From UHGV virus genome UHGV-0195027: a stretch of 17,600 bases of DNA. The stretch is one strand, 5' to 3'. Each line of letters opens with the position of its first letter. Position 1 is the first letter of the stretch. A program made the translations under genes and the position numbers. Below, one piece after another: positions 7,976-17,159 of this stretch. The DNA comes from a virus. The notes beneath the pieces are model-generated. The model had not been told where the DNA came from. It searched no databases and saw only the letters and a list, made by a program, of their open reading frames with translations.

Positions 7976-8466
7976 TTTACTGATTCCTCGTGATACAGGC
8001 TTATACCTGCCCATTAGTTATATGGCTCCCGTGCTGCTTCGTAAACGTTCAATAATCAAACAATTGACACTGATCATAAAACCAGTTGGAGGATTTGACT
8101 CTAGCTTGGATATATGATGATGCCACCCTCTTTATATTGTTGTCGGTAACTCACAGACATTGAACTCATGCTGGTGAGTGAAAGGCTACATAAACGCCCA
8201 ACATTTAAACTGCCCTCAGCAGCGTTTGCGGAGCAATATACAGGCTTCGTATTCAATCCTTGCCCTACGAGAAACCCTAGCCGTTGCCTCGTTTTCAAGT
8301 GTCAGGAAGTTCTTTGTCAGACCTCATACAGTCTTGGGCTGGGTGAGGTGCATGGGGGAAGTAGAAGCCTTAACTGTTGAGGTAAATCGAACCATAAGTG
8401 TGCAATTTTTCAAGCCCGGCGCTATTTTAGTATTGAAAACAATTAGTACGCCCCCAAGGACAACTC

Positions 8467-9159
8467 ATGATCGAATTTATCGCAGAGCATATAAACACAG
8501 TAAGTACACTTATCTCCGCTTTGGCAGCATTGCTAACAGCAGTTGCTACATTTTTCTTGTGGAGAGTAACAAGGCTATTAGCAGACGAGACAAAAAGGAT
8601 GGTTGACGCATCAGTTCAACCTCATGTCGTTGTGACTCTTGAACCAAATTCTTGGGCTGCTTTTTATTTTGATATCAATATTGCTAATACCGGAAATGCC
8701 CCAGCCTATGATATTGAAGTCGGATTTAATCCCCCACTGGTTAATGCAGAACATAGAAAAAATAAAGGTATACCATTTAGCAAGGTTAGCGTATTGAAAA
8801 ACGGCCATTCCCTCAACAGCAGTCTTTGTAAGTATGACCAGATTAAAGATCAAGTTTATTCTGTTAGTATTAGCTGGTCTAAACAGCCGGGCTCAACTGA
8901 AAGAGAGCGGAATGAGTATTCTTATGATATGGCTTCTTTCGAGGGGGTTAGCTACTTAGGTGCAAGGAGTCCAATGACACAGATAGCTGAGCAGATGAAA
9001 AAGATTAGAGAAGACTGGAGGCCGATTTCCCAGGGAAGCAAAAAAATTAAAACAGACAACTATAATTCAAGTGACAGAGCAGAGGAACAACGAGCACGTG
9101 AAGAGTGGTATCAGGCCACTGTAAAGAAATGGGATAAAGAAAGGCAAAAAGATAACTAA
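8467..9159 (+). CDS. membrane-anchored hypothetical protein (single N-terminal TM helix plus about 190-aa soluble domain)
   Basis: ATG with AAGGA 8 nt upstream. Residues about 12-33 hydrophobic (VSTLISALAALLTAVATFFLW) followed by basic RVTRLL, suggesting a cytoplasmic C-terminal domain. Charged K/E/R-rich C-terminal tail. AT-rich. Transcribed divergently from the 7465-7975 gene pair. Confidence 0.6.
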   Translation: MIEFIAEHINTVSTLISALAALLTAVATFFLWRVTRLLADETKRMVDASVQPHVVVTLEPNSWAAFYFDINIANTGNAPAYDIEVGFNPPLVNAEHRKNKGIPFSKVSVLKNGHSLNSSLCKYDQIKDQVYSVSISWSKQPGSTERERNEYSYDMASFEGVSYLGARSPMTQIAEQMKKIREDWRPISQGSKKIKTDNYNSSDRAEEQRAREEWYQATVKKWDKERQKDN

Positions 9160-9294
9160 TACAATTGACCTGCTCCCCATAAATTAGCATACCACAATCT
9201 CAGGTTCCTCTTCGCTCAAAACAGGCAGTCAGATTTGATAGCGTTTTGGCTATGTAAATTGTCAGTCGGAAAATGAGTGTGTACAAATCAGGAC

Positions 9295-9322
9295 AGGCGG
9301 GCAGATTGCCCGCCTTTTCTTT
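9295..9322 (+). terminator. intrinsic terminator downstream of the membrane-protein gene
   Basis: AGGCGGGCA-GAT-TGCCCGCCT stem-loop followed by TTTTCTTT on the plus strand. Confidence 0.55.
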
Positions 9323-9325
9323 ATC

Positions 9326-9346
9326 TGTTGTTTCATCCACTGACCA
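9326..9346 (+). promoter_or_regulatory. candidate Ogr-dependent late promoter element upstream of FI (imperfect TGT-N12-ACA dyad)
   Basis: TGT at 9329-9331 and CCA at 9344-9346 separated by 12 nt, about 75-90 bp upstream of the FI start. One mismatch to the P2 late-promoter dyad as recalled. Confidence 0.25.
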
Positions 9347-9418
9347 GCCAGGTCAAATAGCGTCTCATGTACTACCCAACGGAAAATAGTTGCACCCATT
9401 AACCACGGAGTTAAACGG

Positions 9419-10609
9419 ATGAGTGACTATCATCACGGCGTGCAGGTGCTGGAGATTAACGACGGCACCCGCGTCATTTCCACCGTATCCACGGCCATTG
9501 TCGGCTTGGTCTGCACGGCCAGCGATGCGGATGCGGAAATCTTCCCCCTCAATAAACCGGTGCTGATTACCAATGTGCAGAGCGCAATTGCAAAGGCCGG
9601 TAAAAAAGGCACGCTGGCGGCGTCGTTACAGGCCATCGCTGACCAGTCAAAACCGGTCACCGTTGTTGTGCGCGTGGAAGACGGCACCGGTGAAGACGAA
9701 GAAACGAAACTTGCGCAGACCGTTTCCAATATTATCGGCACCACCGACGAAAACGGTCAGTACACCGGACTGAAAGCCCTGATGGGGGCTGAGTCGGTTA
9801 CCGGCGTTAAACCGCGCATTCTCGGCGTACCGGGACTGGACACCAAAGAGGTGGCGGTTGCACTGGCATCGGTATGCCAGGAACTGAATGCATTCGGGTA
9901 TATCAGCGCATGGGGCTGTAAAACCATTTCCGAGGCAAAAGCCTACCGTCAGAATTTCAGTCAGCGTGAGCTGATGGTCATCTGGCCGGATTTCCTTGCA
10001 TGGGATACGGTCACCAGTACCACCGCCACCGCGTATGCCACTGCCCGTGCGCTGGGGCTGCGTGCCAAAATCGACCAGGAGCAGGGCTGGCATAAAACGC
10101 TGTCCAACGTCGGGGTAAACGGTGTTACCGGCATCAGCGCATCTGTATTCTGGGATTTGCAGAAGTCTGGCACTGATGCTGACCTGCTGAACGAGGCAGG
10201 CGTCACAACGCTGATTCGCCGTGATGGTTTCCGCTTCTGGGGTAACCGTACCTGCTCCGATGACCCACTGTTCCTCTTTGAAAGCTACACACGCACCGCG
10301 CAGGTACTGGCTGACACGATGGCTGAGGCGCACATGTGGGCTATTGATAAGCCCATCACCGCAACGCTGATTCGCGACATCGTTGATGGCATCAATGCCA
10401 AATTCCGAGAGCTGAAAACAAACGGCTATATCGTGGATGCGACCTGCTGGTTCAGCGAAGAATCCAACGATGCGGAAACCCTCAAGGCCGGAAAACTGTA
10501 TATCGACTACGACTATACACCGGTGCCTCCTCTCGAAAACCTGACCCTGCGCCAGCGTATTACCGATAAATACCTGGCAAATCTGGTCACCTCGGTTAAC
10601 AGCAATTAA
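9419..10609 (+). CDS. FI: phage tail sheath protein (P2 gpFI-like)
   Basis: 396 aa; recognised as P2-type contractile tail sheath; GGAG ribosome-binding site; first gene of the FI-FII-E-T-U-D cluster. Confidence 0.95.
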   Translation: MSDYHHGVQVLEINDGTRVISTVSTAIVGLVCTASDADAEIFPLNKPVLITNVQSAIAKAGKKGTLAASLQAIADQSKPVTVVVRVEDGTGEDEETKLAQTVSNIIGTTDENGQYTGLKALMGAESVTGVKPRILGVPGLDTKEVAVALASVCQELNAFGYISAWGCKTISEAKAYRQNFSQRELMVIWPDFLAWDTVTSTTATAYATARALGLRAKIDQEQGWHKTLSNVGVNGVTGISASVFWDLQKSGTDADLLNEAGVTTLIRRDGFRFWGNRTCSDDPLFLFESYTRTAQVLADTMAEAHMWAIDKPITATLIRDIVDGINAKFRELKTNGYIVDATCWFSEESNDAETLKAGKLYIDYDYTPVPPLENLTLRQRITDKYLANLVTSVNSN

Positions 10610-10621
10610 GGAGCCTGACCG

Positions 10622-11140
10622 ATGGCAATGCCGCGCAAACTCAAGTTAATGAACGTCTTTCTGAACGGCTACAGCTATCAGGGCGTTGCAAAGTCCGTCA
10701 CGCTGCCAAAACTGACCCGTAAGCTCGAAAACTATCGCGGTGCGGGAATGAACGGCAGCGCACCGGTAGACCTCGGCCTTGATGACGATGCGCTGTCAAT
10801 GGAGTGGTCGCTCGGGGGCTTCCCGGATTCGGTTATCTGGGAGCTTTACGCCGCAACCGGTGTGGATGCTGTGCCGATTCGTTTTGCAGGCTCTTACCAG
10901 CGTGACGATACCGGCGAAACGGTGGCCGTCGAGGTGGTCATGCGTGGACGTCAGAAAGAAATCGACACCGGCGAGGGTAAACAGGGAGAAGACACCGAGT
11001 CGAAAATCTCCGTGGTCTGCACCTATTTCCGGCTGACGATGGACGGTAAGGAGCTGGTCGAAATCGACACCATCAACATGATTGAGAAGGTGAACGGCGT
11101 CGACCGGCTGGAGCAACACCGCCGCAATATCGGCCTGTGA
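10622..11140 (+). CDS. FII: phage tail tube protein (P2 gpFII-like)
   Basis: 172 aa; begins 12 nt after the FI stop with AAGGAG ribosome-binding site; P2 FII-like sequence and position. Confidence 0.95.
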   Translation: MAMPRKLKLMNVFLNGYSYQGVAKSVTLPKLTRKLENYRGAGMNGSAPVDLGLDDDALSMEWSLGGFPDSVIWELYAATGVDAVPIRFAGSYQRDDTGETVAVEVVMRGRQKEIDTGEGKQGEDTESKISVVCTYFRLTMDGKELVEIDTINMIEKVNGVDRLEQHRRNIGL

Positions 11141-11196
11141 TTTTCATCCGGTCAGCCTGGCTGACCGGTTAACCCCGATTCATAAGTGAGAAAATC

Positions 11197-11472
11197 ATGA
11201 ACAAAGAAAATGTGATTACCCTGGACAATCCGGTCAAACGTGGTGAGCAGGTTATCGAACAGGTCACGCTGATGAAACCCAGTGCCGGGACGCTGCGCGG
11301 TGTCAGTCTGGCAGCGGTCGCAAACTCCGAAGTCGATGCACTGATTAAGGTGTTGCCGCGCATGACGGCACCGATGCTGACCGAGCAGGAAGTCGCCGCA
11401 CTGGAACTGCCTGACCTTGTGGCGCTGGCCGGTAAGGTGGTCGGTTTTTTGTCGCCGAACTCGGTGCAGTGA
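11197..11472 (+). CDS. E: tail assembly chaperone gpE (zero-frame product)
   Basis: 91 aa between tube and tape-measure genes, the canonical chaperone position; contains the slippery site near its 3' end. Confidence 0.85.
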   Translation: MNKENVITLDNPVKRGEQVIEQVTLMKPSAGTLRGVSLAAVANSEVDALIKVLPRMTAPMLTEQEVAALELPDLVALAGKVVGFLSPNSVQ

Positions 11473-11624
11473 CGTTTCCGAAAAATCTCTCGGTCGATGA
11501 CCTGATGGCGGATGTGGCAGTGATATTTCACTGGCCGCCATCAGAACTGTATCCCATGAGCCTGACCGAACTCATCACATGGCGCGAAAAGGCGCTCCGG
11601 CGAAGCGGAAACACGAATGAGTAA
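11197..11624 (+). CDS. E': gpE+E' fusion produced by programmed -1 ribosomal frameshift
   Basis: After a -1 slip at T_TTT_TTG (11445-11451) the -1 frame is open to TAA 11622-11624, giving ...FFVAELGAVTFPKNLSVDDLMADVAVIFHWPPSELYPMSLTELITWREKALRRSGNTNE*, ending 5 nt into gene T, as in P2 E/E'. Confidence 0.7.
11445..11451 (+). other. -1 frameshift slippery heptamer T_TTT_TTG
   Basis: Zero-frame codons GGT TTT TTG; heptamer fits X_XXY_YYZ. Confidence 0.7.
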
Positions 11625-14064
11625 CAATGTAAAATTACAGGTATTGCTCAGGGCTGTTGACCAGGCATCCCGTCCGTTTAAATCCATCCGCACAGCGAGC
11701 AAATCGCTGTCGGGGGATATCCGGGAAACACAAAAATCACTGCGCGAGCTGAACGGTCAGGCATCCCGTATTGAGGGATTTCGCAAGACCAGTGCACAGC
11801 TCGCCGTGACTGGTCATGCACTTGAAAAGGCACGGCAGGAGGCCGAAGCCCTTGCCACACAGTTTAAAAACACCGAACGTCCGACACGTGCTCAGGCGAA
11901 AGTGCTGGAATCCGCGAAGCGTGCGGCGGAGGACTTGCAGGCGAAATATAACCGCCTGACGGATTCCGTTAAACGCCAGCAGCGGGAACTGGCCGTTGTG
12001 GGAATTAATACCCGCAATCTTGCACATGATGAGCAGGGACTGAAAAACCGTATCAGTGAAACCACCGCACAGCTTAACCGTCAGCGTGATGCGCTGGCGC
12101 GTGTCAGTGCGCAACAGGCAAAACTTAACGCAGTAAAACAGCGTTATCAGGCCGGAAAGGAACTGGCCGGAAATATGGCCTCAGTGGGCGCTGCCGGTGT
12201 GGGGATTGCGGCGGCGGGAACGATGGCCGGAGTTAAATTGCTGATGCCCGGTTATGAGTTTGCGCAGAAAAACTCAGAATTGCAGGCCGTGCTCGGAGTG
12301 GCAAAAGACTCCGCCGAAATGACCGCACTCCGCAAGCAGGCGCGCCAGCTCGGCGACAATACCGCAGCCTCGGCAGATGATGCAGCCGGTGCACAGATAA
12401 TCATTGCGAAAGCGGGTGGAGATGCTGCGGCTATTCAGGCAGCAACGCCGGTCACACTGAATATGGCACTGGCAAACCAGCGGTCGATGGAAGAAAACGC
12501 GCAATTGTTGCTGGGGACTAAGGCATCCTTTCAACTGTCAAATGATGATGTCAGCCATGTGGGCGACGTGTTGTCGGCAACGATGAATAAGTCGGCGGCT
12601 GATTTTCAGGGACTCAGTGATGCACTGACTTACCTCGGCCCGGTTGCGAGGACGGCAGGTGTAAGTCTTGAGCAGGCAGCGGCCATGACCGGTGTGCTGC
12701 ATGACAATAACATCAGGGGGTCAATGGCGGGTACGGGTAGCAGTGCCGTTGTCACCCGATTACAGGCACCGACTGGAAAAGCATGGGATGCACTCAAAGA
12801 GCTTGGCGTTAAAACCTCGGACAAAAAGGGAAATATGCGTCCGTTGTTCACCATTCTGAAAGAGATTCAGGCCAGCTTTGATAAGCATAAGCTGGGAACG
12901 TCTCAGAAGGGGGAATACCTTAAAACCATTTTTGGTGAGGAAGCCCTGAAATCAGCGAACGTTTTACTGGCAGCGGCAGCAAGCGGAAAACTGGATACGC
13001 TGACCGCCACGCTGAAAGCCTCGGACGGTAAAACGGAAGAGCTGGTTAAAATCATGCAGGATAACCTCGGCGGTGACTTTAAGGAGTTTCAGTCCGCTTA
13101 TGAGGCGGTGGGGACTGACCTGTTTGACCAGCAGGAAGGCGCACTGCGTAAGCTCACTCAGACGGCCACAAAGTATGTGTTAAAACTCGACGGCTGGATC
13201 CAGAAAAACAAATCACTGGCGTCAACCATCGGCCTCATTGTCGGTGGCGCGCTGGCGCTTATTGGCATCATCGGTGCCATTGGTCTTGTAGCCTGGCCGG
13301 TTATCACCGGCATCAATGCCATTATCGCGGCAGCAGGCGCAATGGGGACAATCTTCACGACGGTTGGCAGTGCTGTTATGACGGCCATCGGGGCGATTAG
13401 CTGGCCGGTTGTGGCCGTGGTGGCCGCCATTGTCGCCGGGGCGTTGCTTATCCGTAAATACTGGGAGCCTGTCAGCGCATTCTTTGGCGGTGTGGTGGAA
13501 GGGCTGAAAGCGGCATTTGCGCCGGTGGGGGAACTGTTCACGCCACTGAAGCCGGTGTTTGACTGGCTGGGTGAAAAGTTACAGGCCGTGTGGCAGTGGT
13601 TTAAAAACCTGATTGCCCCGGTCAAAGCCACCCAGGACACCCTGAACCGTTGCCGTGACACGGGCGTCATGTTCGGGCAGGCACTGGCTGACGCGCTGAT
13701 GCTGCCGCTTAATGCGTTCAACAAACTGCGCAGCGGTATTGACTGGGTACTGGAAAAACTCGGTGTTATCAACAAAGAGTCAGACACACTTGACCAGACC
13801 GCCGCAAGGACTCATGCCGCCACGTATGGCACCGGTGGTTATATTCCGGCGACCAGCTCTTATGCTGGCTATCAGGCTTATCAGCCGGTCACTGCACCGG
13901 CTGGCCGCTCTTATGTGGACCAGAGTAAAAACGAATATCACATCAGCCTGACGGGCGGTACTGCGCCGGGGACACAGCTCGACCGCCAGTTACAGGATGC
14001 GCTCGAAAAATACGAGCGGGATAAACGTGCGCGCGCCCGTGCCAGCATGATGCATGACGGTTAA
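11617..14064 (+). CDS. T: tail tape measure protein (P2 gpT-like)
   Basis: 815 aa; N-terminal coiled-coil-rich region, central Gly/Ala-rich hydrophobic segment; position after E/E'. Confidence 0.9.
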   Translation: MSNNVKLQVLLRAVDQASRPFKSIRTASKSLSGDIRETQKSLRELNGQASRIEGFRKTSAQLAVTGHALEKARQEAEALATQFKNTERPTRAQAKVLESAKRAAEDLQAKYNRLTDSVKRQQRELAVVGINTRNLAHDEQGLKNRISETTAQLNRQRDALARVSAQQAKLNAVKQRYQAGKELAGNMASVGAAGVGIAAAGTMAGVKLLMPGYEFAQKNSELQAVLGVAKDSAEMTALRKQARQLGDNTAASADDAAGAQIIIAKAGGDAAAIQAATPVTLNMALANQRSMEENAQLLLGTKASFQLSNDDVSHVGDVLSATMNKSAADFQGLSDALTYLGPVARTAGVSLEQAAAMTGVLHDNNIRGSMAGTGSSAVVTRLQAPTGKAWDALKELGVKTSDKKGNMRPLFTILKEIQASFDKHKLGTSQKGEYLKTIFGEEALKSANVLLAAAASGKLDTLTATLKASDGKTEELVKIMQDNLGGDFKEFQSAYEAVGTDLFDQQEGALRKLTQTATKYVLKLDGWIQKNKSLASTIGLIVGGALALIGIIGAIGLVAWPVITGINAIIAAAGAMGTIFTTVGSAVMTAIGAISWPVVAVVAAIVAGALLIRKYWEPVSAFFGGVVEGLKAAFAPVGELFTPLKPVFDWLGEKLQAVWQWFKNLIAPVKATQDTLNRCRDTGVMFGQALADALMLPLNAFNKLRSGIDWVLEKLGVINKESDTLDQTAARTHAATYGTGGYIPATSSYAGYQAYQPVTAPAGRSYVDQSKNEYHISLTGGTAPGTQLDRQLQDALEKYERDKRARARASMMHDG

Positions 14065-14078
14065 GGAGGTGACGAAAA

Positions 14079-14558
14079 ATGATGCTCGCGTTAGGTATGT
14101 TTGTTTTTATGCGCCAGACGCTGCCACACCAGACCATGCAGCGTGAATCAGATTATCGCTGGCCGTCAAATTCCCGTATCGGTAAACGGGATGCCTTTCA
14201 GTTTCTCGGTGTGGGTGAGGAAAACATCACGCTTGCCGGTGTGCTTTATCCCGAGCTGACCGGCGGCAAGCTGACGATGACCACGCTCAGGCTGATGGCA
14301 GAGGAAGGCCGGGCGTGGCCGTTGCTGGATGGCACCGGCATGATTTACGGCATGTATGTCATCAGCAGGGTGAATGAAACAGGGAGTATTTTCTTTGCAG
14401 ACGGCACACCCCGGAAAATTGATTTTACGCTGTCGCTCACCCGCGTTGATGAATCACTGGCCGCGCTTTATGGCGATATCGGTAAACAGGCGGAATCGCT
14501 CATCGGTAAGGCTGGCAGTATGGCGACCAGATTCACGGGTATGACGGGGGCGGGATAA
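14079..14558 (+). CDS. U: tail protein gpU
   Basis: 159 aa; recognised as P2 gpU-like by sequence and position; stop overlaps the D start (TAATG). Confidence 0.9.
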   Translation: MMLALGMFVFMRQTLPHQTMQRESDYRWPSNSRIGKRDAFQFLGVGEENITLAGVLYPELTGGKLTMTTLRLMAEEGRAWPLLDGTGMIYGMYVISRVNETGSIFFADGTPRKIDFTLSLTRVDESLAALYGDIGKQAESLIGKAGSMATRFTGMTGAG

Positions 14559-15721
14559 TGCTGGATGCGCTGACATTTGATGCAGGCAGTACGCTGACGC
14601 CGGATTACATGCTGATGCTCGACAGCAGGGATATTACCGGCAATATCAGTGACCGTCTGATGAGCATGACCCTGACGGATAACCGGGGCTTTGAGGCTGA
14701 CCAGCTTGATATTGAACTGAACGATGCCGACGGGCAGGTCGGGCTGCCGGTTCGTGGCGCTGTCCTGACGGTGTATATCGGCTGGGAAGGTTTTGCCCTG
14801 GTATGCAAAGGGAAATTCACCGTTGATGAGGTTGAACACCGGGGCGCGCCGGATGTGGTCACCATCCGCGCCCGGAGTGCAGATTTTCGCGGGACGCTCA
14901 ATTCCCGCCGTGAAGGCTCCTGGCATGATACCACGCTCGGTGCGATTGTTGAGGCGATAGCCTCCCGTAACAGGCTGGAAGCCAGTGTCGCGCCGTCACT
15001 GGCAGGAATTAAAATCCCGCACATCGACCAGTCGCAGGAGTCTGATGCGAAATTCCTGACCCGTCTTGCTGAACGCAACGGCGGTGAGGTGTCGGTAAAA
15101 ATGGGAAAACTGTTGTTTCTCAAAGCGGGGCAGGGGGTGACGGCCAGCGGTAAAAAAATCCCGCAGATTACCATCACCCGCAGCGACGGCGACCGTCATC
15201 ATTTTGCGATTGCTGACCGTGGAGCCTATACCGGCGTAACGGCAAAGTGGTTACACACCAAAGACCCGAAGCCGCAAAAGCAGAAGGTAAAACTGAAACG
15301 CAAAAAGAAAGAAAAACACCTGCGCGCACTGGAGCACCCGAAAGCGAAACCGGTCAGGCAGAAGAAAGCGCCAAAAGTACCGGAAGCGCGCGAAGGTGAA
15401 TATATGGCCGGTGAGGCTGACAATGTTTTTGCCCTGACCACGGTATATGCCACGAAAGCGCAGGCCATGCGCGCCGCTCAGGCGAAGTGGGATAAACTGC
15501 AACGGGGCGTTGCGGAGTTCTCCATCAGCCTGGCTACCGGTCGGGCAGATATTTACACGGAAACACCGGTTAAAGTGTCAGGCTTTAAGCGCGTCATAGA
15601 CGAGCAGGACTGGACAATCACTAAGGTGACACATTTTCTGAATAATAGCGGCTTCACGACGTCCTTAGAGCTTGAGGTCAGGCTTTCTGATGTGGAGTAC
15701 GAAACAGAAGGTGATGAGTAA
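14558..15721 (+). CDS. D: tail/late control protein gpD
   Basis: 387 aa; P2 gpD-like throughout (MLDALTFDAGSTLTPDYMLMLDSRDITGN...), including the lysine-rich KPQKQKVKLKRKKKEKH segment. Confidence 0.9.
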   Translation: MLDALTFDAGSTLTPDYMLMLDSRDITGNISDRLMSMTLTDNRGFEADQLDIELNDADGQVGLPVRGAVLTVYIGWEGFALVCKGKFTVDEVEHRGAPDVVTIRARSADFRGTLNSRREGSWHDTTLGAIVEAIASRNRLEASVAPSLAGIKIPHIDQSQESDAKFLTRLAERNGGEVSVKMGKLLFLKAGQGVTASGKKIPQITITRSDGDRHHFAIADRGAYTGVTAKWLHTKDPKPQKQKVKLKRKKKEKHLRALEHPKAKPVRQKKAPKVPEAREGEYMAGEADNVFALTTVYATKAQAMRAAQAKWDKLQRGVAEFSISLATGRADIYTETPVKVSGFKRVIDEQDWTITKVTHFLNNSGFTTSLELEVRLSDVEYETEGDE

Positions 15722-15802
15722 TGTTTTGTTTTTATCTGTTTGTTTTATAAGGATAAATTAACTAAAATGGCACCATCAACAAAACTGGAAGAGGTGCTCG
15801 CG

Positions 15803-16021
15803 ATGTTTCATTGTCCTTTATGCCAGCATGCCGCACATGCGCGTACAAGCCGCTATATCACTGACACGACAAAAGAGCGTTATCACCAGTGCCAGAACGT
15901 GAATTGCAGCGCCACGTTCATCACTTATGAGTCGGTACAGAGATACATCGTGAAGCCGGGAGAAGTCCACGCCGTGAGGCCGCACCCGTTGCCGTCAGGG
16001 CAGCAAATTATGTGGATGTGA
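15803..16021 (+). CDS. ogr: late-gene transcriptional activator Ogr (zinc-finger)
   Basis: 72-aa product MFHCPLCQHAAHARTSRYITDTTKERYHQCQNVNCSATF... with a Cys4 zinc-binding motif, matching P2 Ogr as recalled. The listed ORF start 15740 is an upstream in-frame Met and is rejected. Confidence 0.9.
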   Translation: MFHCPLCQHAAHARTSRYITDTTKERYHQCQNVNCSATFITYESVQRYIVKPGEVHAVRPHPLPSGQQIMWM

Positions 16022-16032
16022 TCACAAAAATA

Positions 16033-16057
16033 GCCCCTCAGTTGAGGGGCTTATTTA
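16033..16057 (+). terminator. intrinsic terminator after ogr; prophage right-end region
   Basis: GCCCCTCA-GT-TGAGGGGC stem-loop followed by TTATTTA, 12 nt after the ogr stop. Confidence 0.6.
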
Positions 16058-16120
16058 TGGTCGATGTGGACGCTATGTGGACAGTGGTTGATATAAATCC
16101 ATTTATATCATCAGGTTAGG

Positions 16121-16175
16121 TGCTTTTTTGTGACACCATCCCTGTCTTCCCCCACATGATGTGGGGGTTTTTTTT
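16121..16175 (+). ncRNA. cpxP 3'UTR / CpxQ-like sRNA remnant with its terminator
   Basis: GACACCATCCCTGTCTTCCCCCACATG-ATGTGGGGG-T8 (hairpin 16149-16167 plus U-run to 16175). Resembles, from memory, the 3' part of the cpxP-derived sRNA CpxQ, located upstream of fieF as in E. coli K-12. No cpxP coding sequence is present in any frame just upstream. Confidence 0.4.
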
Positions 16176-16256
16176 ATCCTCAATTTGCCTGCTGCTTAAT
16201 GCATTGCAGATGATTTGCTTCCGTTATACTAGCGTCAGTTGATAGCGGGAGTATTT

Positions 16257-17159
16257 ATGAATCAATCTTATGGACGGCTGGTCAGTCGGGCGGCGATTGC
16301 TGCGACGGCGATGGCTTCGTTGCTATTGCTGATTAAAATTTTTGCATGGTGGTATACCGGGTCGGTGAGTATTCTCGCCGCGCTGGTGGATTCGCTGGTG
16401 GATATCGGCGCGTCGTTGACGAATTTACTGGTGGTGCGATATTCCCTGCAACCTGCCGACGATAATCACTCGTTTGGTCACGGTAAAGCAGAGTCCCTCG
16501 CGGCGCTGGCGCAAAGTATGTTTATCTCCGGTTCGGCACTATTCCTGTTTTTGACGGGTATTCAACATCTGATATCTCCAACACCGATGACAGATCCAGG
16601 CGTCGGGGTTATCGTGACAATTGTGGCGCTAATTTGTACGATTATCCTTGTCTCGTTTCAGCGTTGGGTGGTGCGCCGGACGCAAAGCCAGGCGGTGCGG
16701 GCTGATATGCTACATTACCAGTCTGATGTTATGATGAACGGCGCAATTCTGCTGGCGCTGGGGTTGTCCTGGTACGGCTGGCATCGCGCCGATGCTCTGT
16801 TTGCATTGGGAATCGGCATCTATATTTTATATAGCGCGTTACGCATGGGATATGAGGCGGTACAGTCATTACTGGATCGCGCATTGCCTGATGAGGAACG
16901 GCAAGAAATTATTGATATCGTGACTTCCTGGCCGGGTGTTAGCGGCGCTCACGATCTTCGCACGCGGCAGTCAGGGCCGACCCGCTTTATTCAGATTCAT
17001 TTGGAAATGGAAGACTCTCTGCCTTTGGTTCAGGCACATATGGTGGCGGATCAGGTAGAGCAGGCTATTTTACGGCGTTTTCCGGGATCGGATGTAATTA
17101 TCCATCAGGACCCCTGTTCCGTCGTACCCAGGGAGGGTAAACGGTCTATGCTTTCATAA
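16257..17159 (+). CDS. fieF: ferrous-iron/zinc efflux pump FieF (YiiP), cation diffusion facilitator family
   Basis: 300-aa product starting [38 protein letters not shown]..., recognised as E. coli FieF. The listed ORF start 16239 adds six residues and is rejected. Confidence 0.95.

Follow-up and report, generated by a model that had tools for sequence, protein, structure and literature searches.

The 17,600-nt stretch of DNA analysed here (the window) contains the right junction of a P2-like prophage, and comparison of its sequence with free phages, lysogens and prophage-free hosts indicates that positions 16059–16178 are very probably the attR of a Wphi-type prophage inserted at the known cpxP–fieF attB, with the small RNA CpxQ rebuilt at attL. 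At attL, cpxP, the full CpxQ sequence and the terminator are contiguous because the 3′ end of CpxQ is supplied in a further copy by the phage; the copy at attR most likely has no role beyond those of a recombination site and of a terminator before fieF. The features of the window are listed in Table 1.

Table 1. Positions of the prophage, its right attachment site and the flanking elements in the window.
Feature	Position	Strand	Evidence or content
ISEc12 (IS21 family), cutting the prophage inside gene H	3947–6527	+	istA 4140–5681, istB 5693–6442
P2-like prophage remnant	6528–16131	+	3′ end of gene H (tail fibre), tail-fibre assembly, three ORFs, sheath, tube, E/E′, tape measure, U, D, ogr
Cargo ORF	7465–7743	−	No Pfam and no PADLOC match
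Cargo ORF, DUF3606	7796–8014	−	No PADLOC match
Cargo ORF, 230 aa	8467–9159	+	No Pfam and no PADLOC match
ogr, late-gene activator, last phage gene	15803–16021	+	Pfam Ogr_Delta (E 1e-21); ogrK in matching genomes, ogr in Wphi and L-413C
ogr terminator hairpin, GC-rich	16032–16051	Terminator-like on both strands	Terminator scan; fold −18 kcal/mol, z −4.4
P arm of attR, phage DNA between ogr terminator and core	16059–16131	+	Alignment to Wphi/L-413C attP
Two direct ATGTGGAC repeats, 11 bp apart, predicted arm-type integrase sites	16064–16082 (16064–16071, 16075–16082)	+	Match to P2-type consensus
IHF-consensus-like site TATCATCAGGTTA, one mismatch, weak	16106–16118	+	Suggested by position only
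47-bp att core: 3′ 44 nt of CpxQ plus 3 bp, without the 14-nt CpxQ 5′ seed	16132–16178	+	attP/attL/attR/attB alignments
Inverted repeat GACA-CCATCCC-TGTC with 7-bp spacer, candidate core-type Int sites and overlap	16132–16146	+	Stem in folds; inferred
CpxQ-type intrinsic terminator: 8-bp stem, 3-nt loop (variable base 16159), T8	16149–16175	+	Terminator scan, fold
Native cpxP–fieF intergenic DNA, fieF upstream region, chromosome only	16179–16256	+	100% identity to prophage-free E. coli
fieF	16257–17159	+	Annotation of matching genomes

The prophage–chromosome junction

P2-type late genes are carried by the right 11 kb of the window, and attR lies to the right of these genes, after ogr and adjoining fieF, which is followed by the start of pfkA. 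Homology between the window and prophage-free E. coli, K-12 included, begins only at position 16132, with ogr and the P arm upstream, and this bears out the right prophage junction proposed in an earlier reading made from the letters of the window alone (the sequence-only reading). The segment 16132–16178, GACACCATCCCTGTCTTCCCCCACATGATGTGGGGGTTTTTTTTATC, is identical at 46 of 47 positions to the cpxP 3′ UTR of E. coli K-12 (3′ part of CpxQ, terminator and T8), the sole mismatch being a hairpin-loop base (A in the window, C in K-12). Its K-12 counterpart, which includes the cpxP terminator, extends from 23 nt past the cpxP stop codon to 79 nt short of fieF. The proposal that the junction falls within cpxP 3′ UTR/CpxQ sequence and that a CpxQ-like terminator is kept upstream of fieF was, thus, correct. 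To the left of 16132, the window follows the attP arm of the phage rather than the 3′ coding end of cpxP, and no CpxP C-terminus was found before this position when the window was aligned with the attP arm and the end of cpxP, in agreement with the earlier statement that no such coding sequence precedes the CpxQ-like stretch. The same reading held that chromosomal-type sequence resumes after the ogr terminator. A CpxQ-like stretch is indeed present there, but 16132–16178 is also phage-borne and, therefore, common to phage and chromosome; the window departs from attP and attL only after 16178, and DNA found in the chromosome alone begins at 16179.

The P arm (16059–16131) is identical to the Wphi attP arm and differs from that of L-413C at one position; 24 attR-type and four attP-type contigs from IMG/VR have this arm before the core. 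The ATGTGGAC repeats fit the P2-type arm-site consensus, tgTGGaCa (PMC3448106). Four matches to ATGTGGAC were found in the window, against 0.58 expected, two of them in the P arm, and a matching pair of arm sites is present in the int-side arm at attL. Matches to the IHF consensus were not more numerous across the window than expected by chance. The hairpin behind ogr has a weak terminator tail on the plus strand (TATTTATGG) and a stronger one on the minus strand (ATTTTTGTGA), according to the terminator scan. An extended homology of the P arm to the 5′ part of CpxQ was considered and rejected, the alignment yielding only scattered matches.

The att core in free phages, lysogens and unoccupied chromosomes

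The free-phage genomes of Wphi and L-413C have exactly these 47 bp between ogr and int (47/47 identity to the window); in their attP, the core is bordered on the left by the counterpart of window 16022–16131 and on the right by the int-side arm. In three- and five-way alignments, attB, attL, attR and attP share a core of 47 bp; outside it, attR agrees with the P arm and attL with the int-side arm. Host DNA, core and int-side arm at attL, with ogr-side arm, core and host DNA at attR, make up the Campbell arrangement. The alignment to the cpxP–fieF interval of prophage-free E. coli suggested by the sequence-only reading, thus, located the attR core, at 16132–16178, but with cpxP and its UTR still contiguous in lysogens, contrary to what that reading expected. 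The matching attL copy that it proposed to look for was found in related lysogens: in FXCREC043, the right junction of which is identical to that of the window, attL consists of the cpxP stop codon, TAAACCCTGTTTTCCTTGCCATA, the 47-bp core, the int-side arm and int.

This arrangement is widespread. The attL junction was detected in 774 of 5426 complete E. coli genomes with a 241-nt query covering the end of cpxP, the UTR, the core and the int-side arm (threshold of at least 80% coverage), and in 820 of these genomes with a 97-nt query; the attR junction was detected in 623 or 790 of the 5426, depending on the query. All 24 attL-type contigs in IMG/VR keep the 5′ part of CpxQ, and their cpxP ends are of Escherichia, Klebsiella, Enterobacter, Salmonella, Citrobacter and Kosakonia types. 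The 44-nt core is present without a mismatch in 108 species-representative genomes of Enterobacterales (Enterobacteriaceae and Erwiniaceae), lying 3′ of the CpxQ 5′ part in 107 of them, and the match to CpxQ beginning at 16132 is, therefore, not a chance resemblance. This spread fits the reported exceptional conservation of CpxQ, and the identity of the core in more than 100 species explains the use of the site by related phages in Klebsiella, Enterobacter, Citrobacter and Salmonella. The intactness of cpxP–CpxQ is known from these related lysogens, the attL of the window's own genome lying outside the view because ISEc12 cuts the prophage at 6527/6528.

Position of the crossover

Position 16159 (1528 in L001), in the terminator loop, is polymorphic: the window, every attP copy and all 108 species representatives have A, whereas many E. 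coli, K-12 among them, have C. The attR of at least 40 E. coli lysogens carries C (exact matches over 97 nt). No C was found at attL among the 5426 genomes, where a C-allele attL query was matched over its full length with one mismatch at best. Four lysogens that were read directly (M217, ECCWS199, 4/2-1 and H9Ecoli) all have C at attR and A at attL. Given this allele pattern, strand exchange takes place 5′ of the loop base, within core positions 1–27. Going by these alleles, the phage supplies the 3′ half of the CpxQ terminator that works at attL, and lysogeny could change at most one base of CpxQ, the terminator-loop base, from C to A in hosts with the K-12 allele; integration in such C-type hosts rewrites one base of the host's working CpxQ.

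A GACA-N7-TGTC inverted repeat at the left end of the core forms a small stem in the RNA fold. Overlap regions of tyrosine recombinases are usually 7 bp long, and the spacer of this repeat, CCATCCC (16136–16142), being of that size, is proposed as the crossover site and is probably the overlap region. The phage tyrosine integrase would exchange strands at putative cut sites near the left end of the identity block, probably in this spacer, assisted by the arm-type sites of both flanking arms and probably also by IHF and Cox. After integration, attL consists of cpxP, the host-encoded CpxQ 5′ seed and the phage-supplied 3′ terminator, the sRNA gene being rebuilt intact beside int, and attR joins the phage P arm and the core to the fieF upstream region and has neither the seed nor the cpxP promoter.

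The truncated prophage and its left flank

Window 1–3946 shares 99.9% identity with part of plasmid A of E. coli M10, a K88-like fimbrial region flanked by the same insertion sequence on the same side. The end of a K88/F4-like fimbrial cluster, with a faeI-like ORF at 34–381, lies in this part of the window, and a split AraC/GyrI-like gene is found on the minus strand at 3228–3959. A rearrangement mediated by ISEc12, or a plasmid cointegration, may have moved or deleted the left half of the prophage, leaving attR unpaired with attL and cpxP, as an orphan for which normal excision would be impossible. This is somewhat less likely than not. The phage sequence begins at 6528, inside gene H, with ISEc12 (3947–6527) and then DNA resembling plasmid A of M10 (1–3946) to its left, and no target-site duplication flanks ISEc12. 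However, the plasmid/ISEc12/prophage arrangement was found in no complete E. coli genome, in searches with the whole window and with the IS/phage junction, and the flanking plasmid gene occurs only on contigs of less than 200 kb, so that a real rearrangement is no more likely than a contig mis-join at the IS repeat. A prophage truncated at 6527/6528 cannot make infectious particles.

The cargo slot of this prophage (window 7300–9400) lies between the tail-fibre assembly and sheath genes, and other lysogens carry other cargo at this place; in strain 2023CK-01509, it holds a "lysogenic conversion protein" gene interrupted by ISEc12. Variant prophages also occupy this attachment site. Only int, a repressor fragment and ogr remain in ECCWS199 (locus L182, 2000–5097), between attL and attR sites 1.8 kb apart, and M217 (locus L168, 17797–19952) has IS150 and a 642-nt ORF between ogr and attR, together with ISEc12 in the replication gene. 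In assembly 2020N21-246-1, the core is carried by a separate 32.3-kb record, which may be a circular phage genome.

The CpxQ fragment at attR

CpxQ is an RNase E product of about 60 nt that covers almost the whole cpxP 3′ UTR (PMC9438474). It begins with U, and its U7 pairs with nhaB (PMC10250213); the seed for nhaB and cfa is formed by its 5′ end (PMC6755755). The attR fragment lacks the 14-nt CpxQ seed, UUUUCCUUGCCAUA (the 5′ end of the RNA being placed here from indirect statements, namely the initial U and the U7–nhaB pairing), and has GGTGCTTTTTTGT in its place. The copy at attR shares with this RNase E-processed, Hfq-dependent sRNA of the cpxP 3′ UTR its last 44 nt, that is, the small hairpin, the terminator and U8. 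The Rho-independent hairpin and U tract that form the Hfq-binding 3′ end of CpxQ are, thus, present at attR, in both the terminator scan and the fold. Unlike CpxQ, the attR copy has no 14-nt 5′ seed, no RNase E site context and no cpxP promoter, and it has ogr and the P arm upstream, whereas CpxQ immediately follows the stop codon of cpxP on the same mRNA. What attR carries is a fragment of the CpxQ gene rather than the gene itself.

No CpxQ family was recovered when the window, the K-12 attB and attL were scanned against Rfam. The only Rfam model at the locus is RF02628, Hrs1 (Erwinia "Hfq-regulated sRNA 1"), on the strand antisense to CpxQ; it matches the full CpxQ sequence with 41–45 bits (L001, 1472–1544; L003, 11572–11644) and the attR fragment with 31.8 bits (16109–16175, minus strand), all of these scores being below the gathering score of 56.4. 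The reverse complement of the Hrs1 model consensus resembles CpxQ; the model may describe the cpxQ locus of Erwinia from its opposite strand, or else a genuine antisense RNA.

In the unoccupied chromosome, the same hairpin ends cpxP transcription ahead of fieF. At attR, the copy would be the substrate for excision, and its terminator would be a second one backing the weak ogr terminator, keeping transcription of ogr and the late operon out of fieF.

Possible expression of the phage-borne module

In attP as well as in attR, the weak ogr terminator is followed closely by the 44-nt 3′ module, which presumably binds Hfq. Transcripts reading through the ogr terminator and ending at the CpxQ terminator might give rise to a chimeric, Hfq-binding CpxQ-like RNA with a phage 5′ end, acting as a decoy or a regulator. 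Such an RNA would be compatible with the role of the sequence as an att site and could exist in addition to it, but it appears highly improbable. The poor U tract of the ogr terminator on the plus strand and the strong terminator about 100 nt downstream are in its favour, as is the retention at attR of both CpxQ hairpins and U8 (−16.5 vs −17.4 kcal/mol in the fold). The U-rich GGTGCTTTTTTGT just upstream of the core is, in addition, fairly conserved across diverse P arms, although integrase and IHF binding would account for P-arm conservation. The known seed, the 5′ end of CpxQ, is missing, and there is no promoter-like site nearby, a sigma-70 promoter scan of 15650–16400, which is insensitive and also misses the fieF promoter, having found none.

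In lysogens, int is transcribed convergently towards cpxP and cpxQ (attL of FXCREC043, L003, 11452–11640). A scan of this attL found no terminator-like site on the int strand between the int stop codon and cpxQ, and antisense transcription across cpxQ is, therefore, possible in lysogens; in the free phage, the same int transcript would reach the bidirectional ogr terminator. If such transcription does occur, int antisense RNA could modulate CpxQ, an envelope-stress sRNA. That Wphi-type phages exploit the CpxQ scaffold in these ways, through a chimeric CpxQ-like RNA or Hfq decoy from attP or attR and through modulation of CpxQ by int antisense RNA, seems very unlikely as a whole.

The sequence-only reading had the prophage splitting the cpxP coding region from its 3′ UTR and terminator, with lysogeny uncoupling CpxQ from cpxP or changing the 5′ portion of the sRNA; neither cpxP coding sequence nor the CpxQ 5′ seed precedes the CpxQ-like stretch within the window, but this account is almost certainly wrong, because the phage carries the 47-bp core itself, as in the attP of Wphi and L-413C, and duplicates it on integration, and because attL keeps cpxP, CpxQ and the terminator contiguous in every lysogen examined and in 774–820 of the 5426 genomes, the CpxQ 5′ part being kept in 24/24 attL-type viral contigs as well.

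Relation to known attachment sites and biological meaning

The attachment of a Wphi-type prophage, with CpxQ rebuilt at attL, agrees with what has been described for this locus. The E. coli W prophage Wphi1 is listed at cpxP–fieF (PMC3032704), and Wphi and L-413C share one core, with attB at MG1655 coordinate 4104392 (PMC3448106); the cpxP–fieF interval is also occupied by an O157 prophage and by PhiESI of Salmonella Infantis. The att site is, thus, already known, and the junction is an ordinary one. The P2-like coliphage Wphi and the Yersinia phage L-413C have the same 47-bp core, P arm, paired tgTGGaCa arm sites and position after ogr as the window, from which they show essentially no difference at the junction, whereas the body of the prophage in the window has other cargo and is cut by ISEc12.

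Many phages and islands integrate at the 3′ ends of tRNA, tmRNA and sRNA genes, examples being 186 in tRNA-Ile, Fels-2 and SopEphi in ssrA, and P2-type elements at cyaR and rybB. The site at cpxP–fieF resembles these in having a block of identity that extends from the crossover slightly beyond the 3′ end of the RNA gene, and in having int beside the rebuilt gene copy, with a 3′ fragment left at the far junction. It differs from them in that the target is an sRNA processed from an mRNA 3′ UTR rather than a free-standing RNA gene, and the rebuilt element doubles as the cpxP terminator. None of the papers open to searching links CpxQ to this att site. The small addition made here is an annotation, and possibly not a new one: the published attB of Wphi coincides with the 3′ end of CpxQ, an sRNA that was described years after the att site.

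When CpxQ reads are mapped in lysogens, a second, seedless copy should be expected at attR. The prophage is very common, occurring in about 15% of complete E. coli genomes, and its carriage should not abolish the noncoding arm of the Cpx envelope-stress response.
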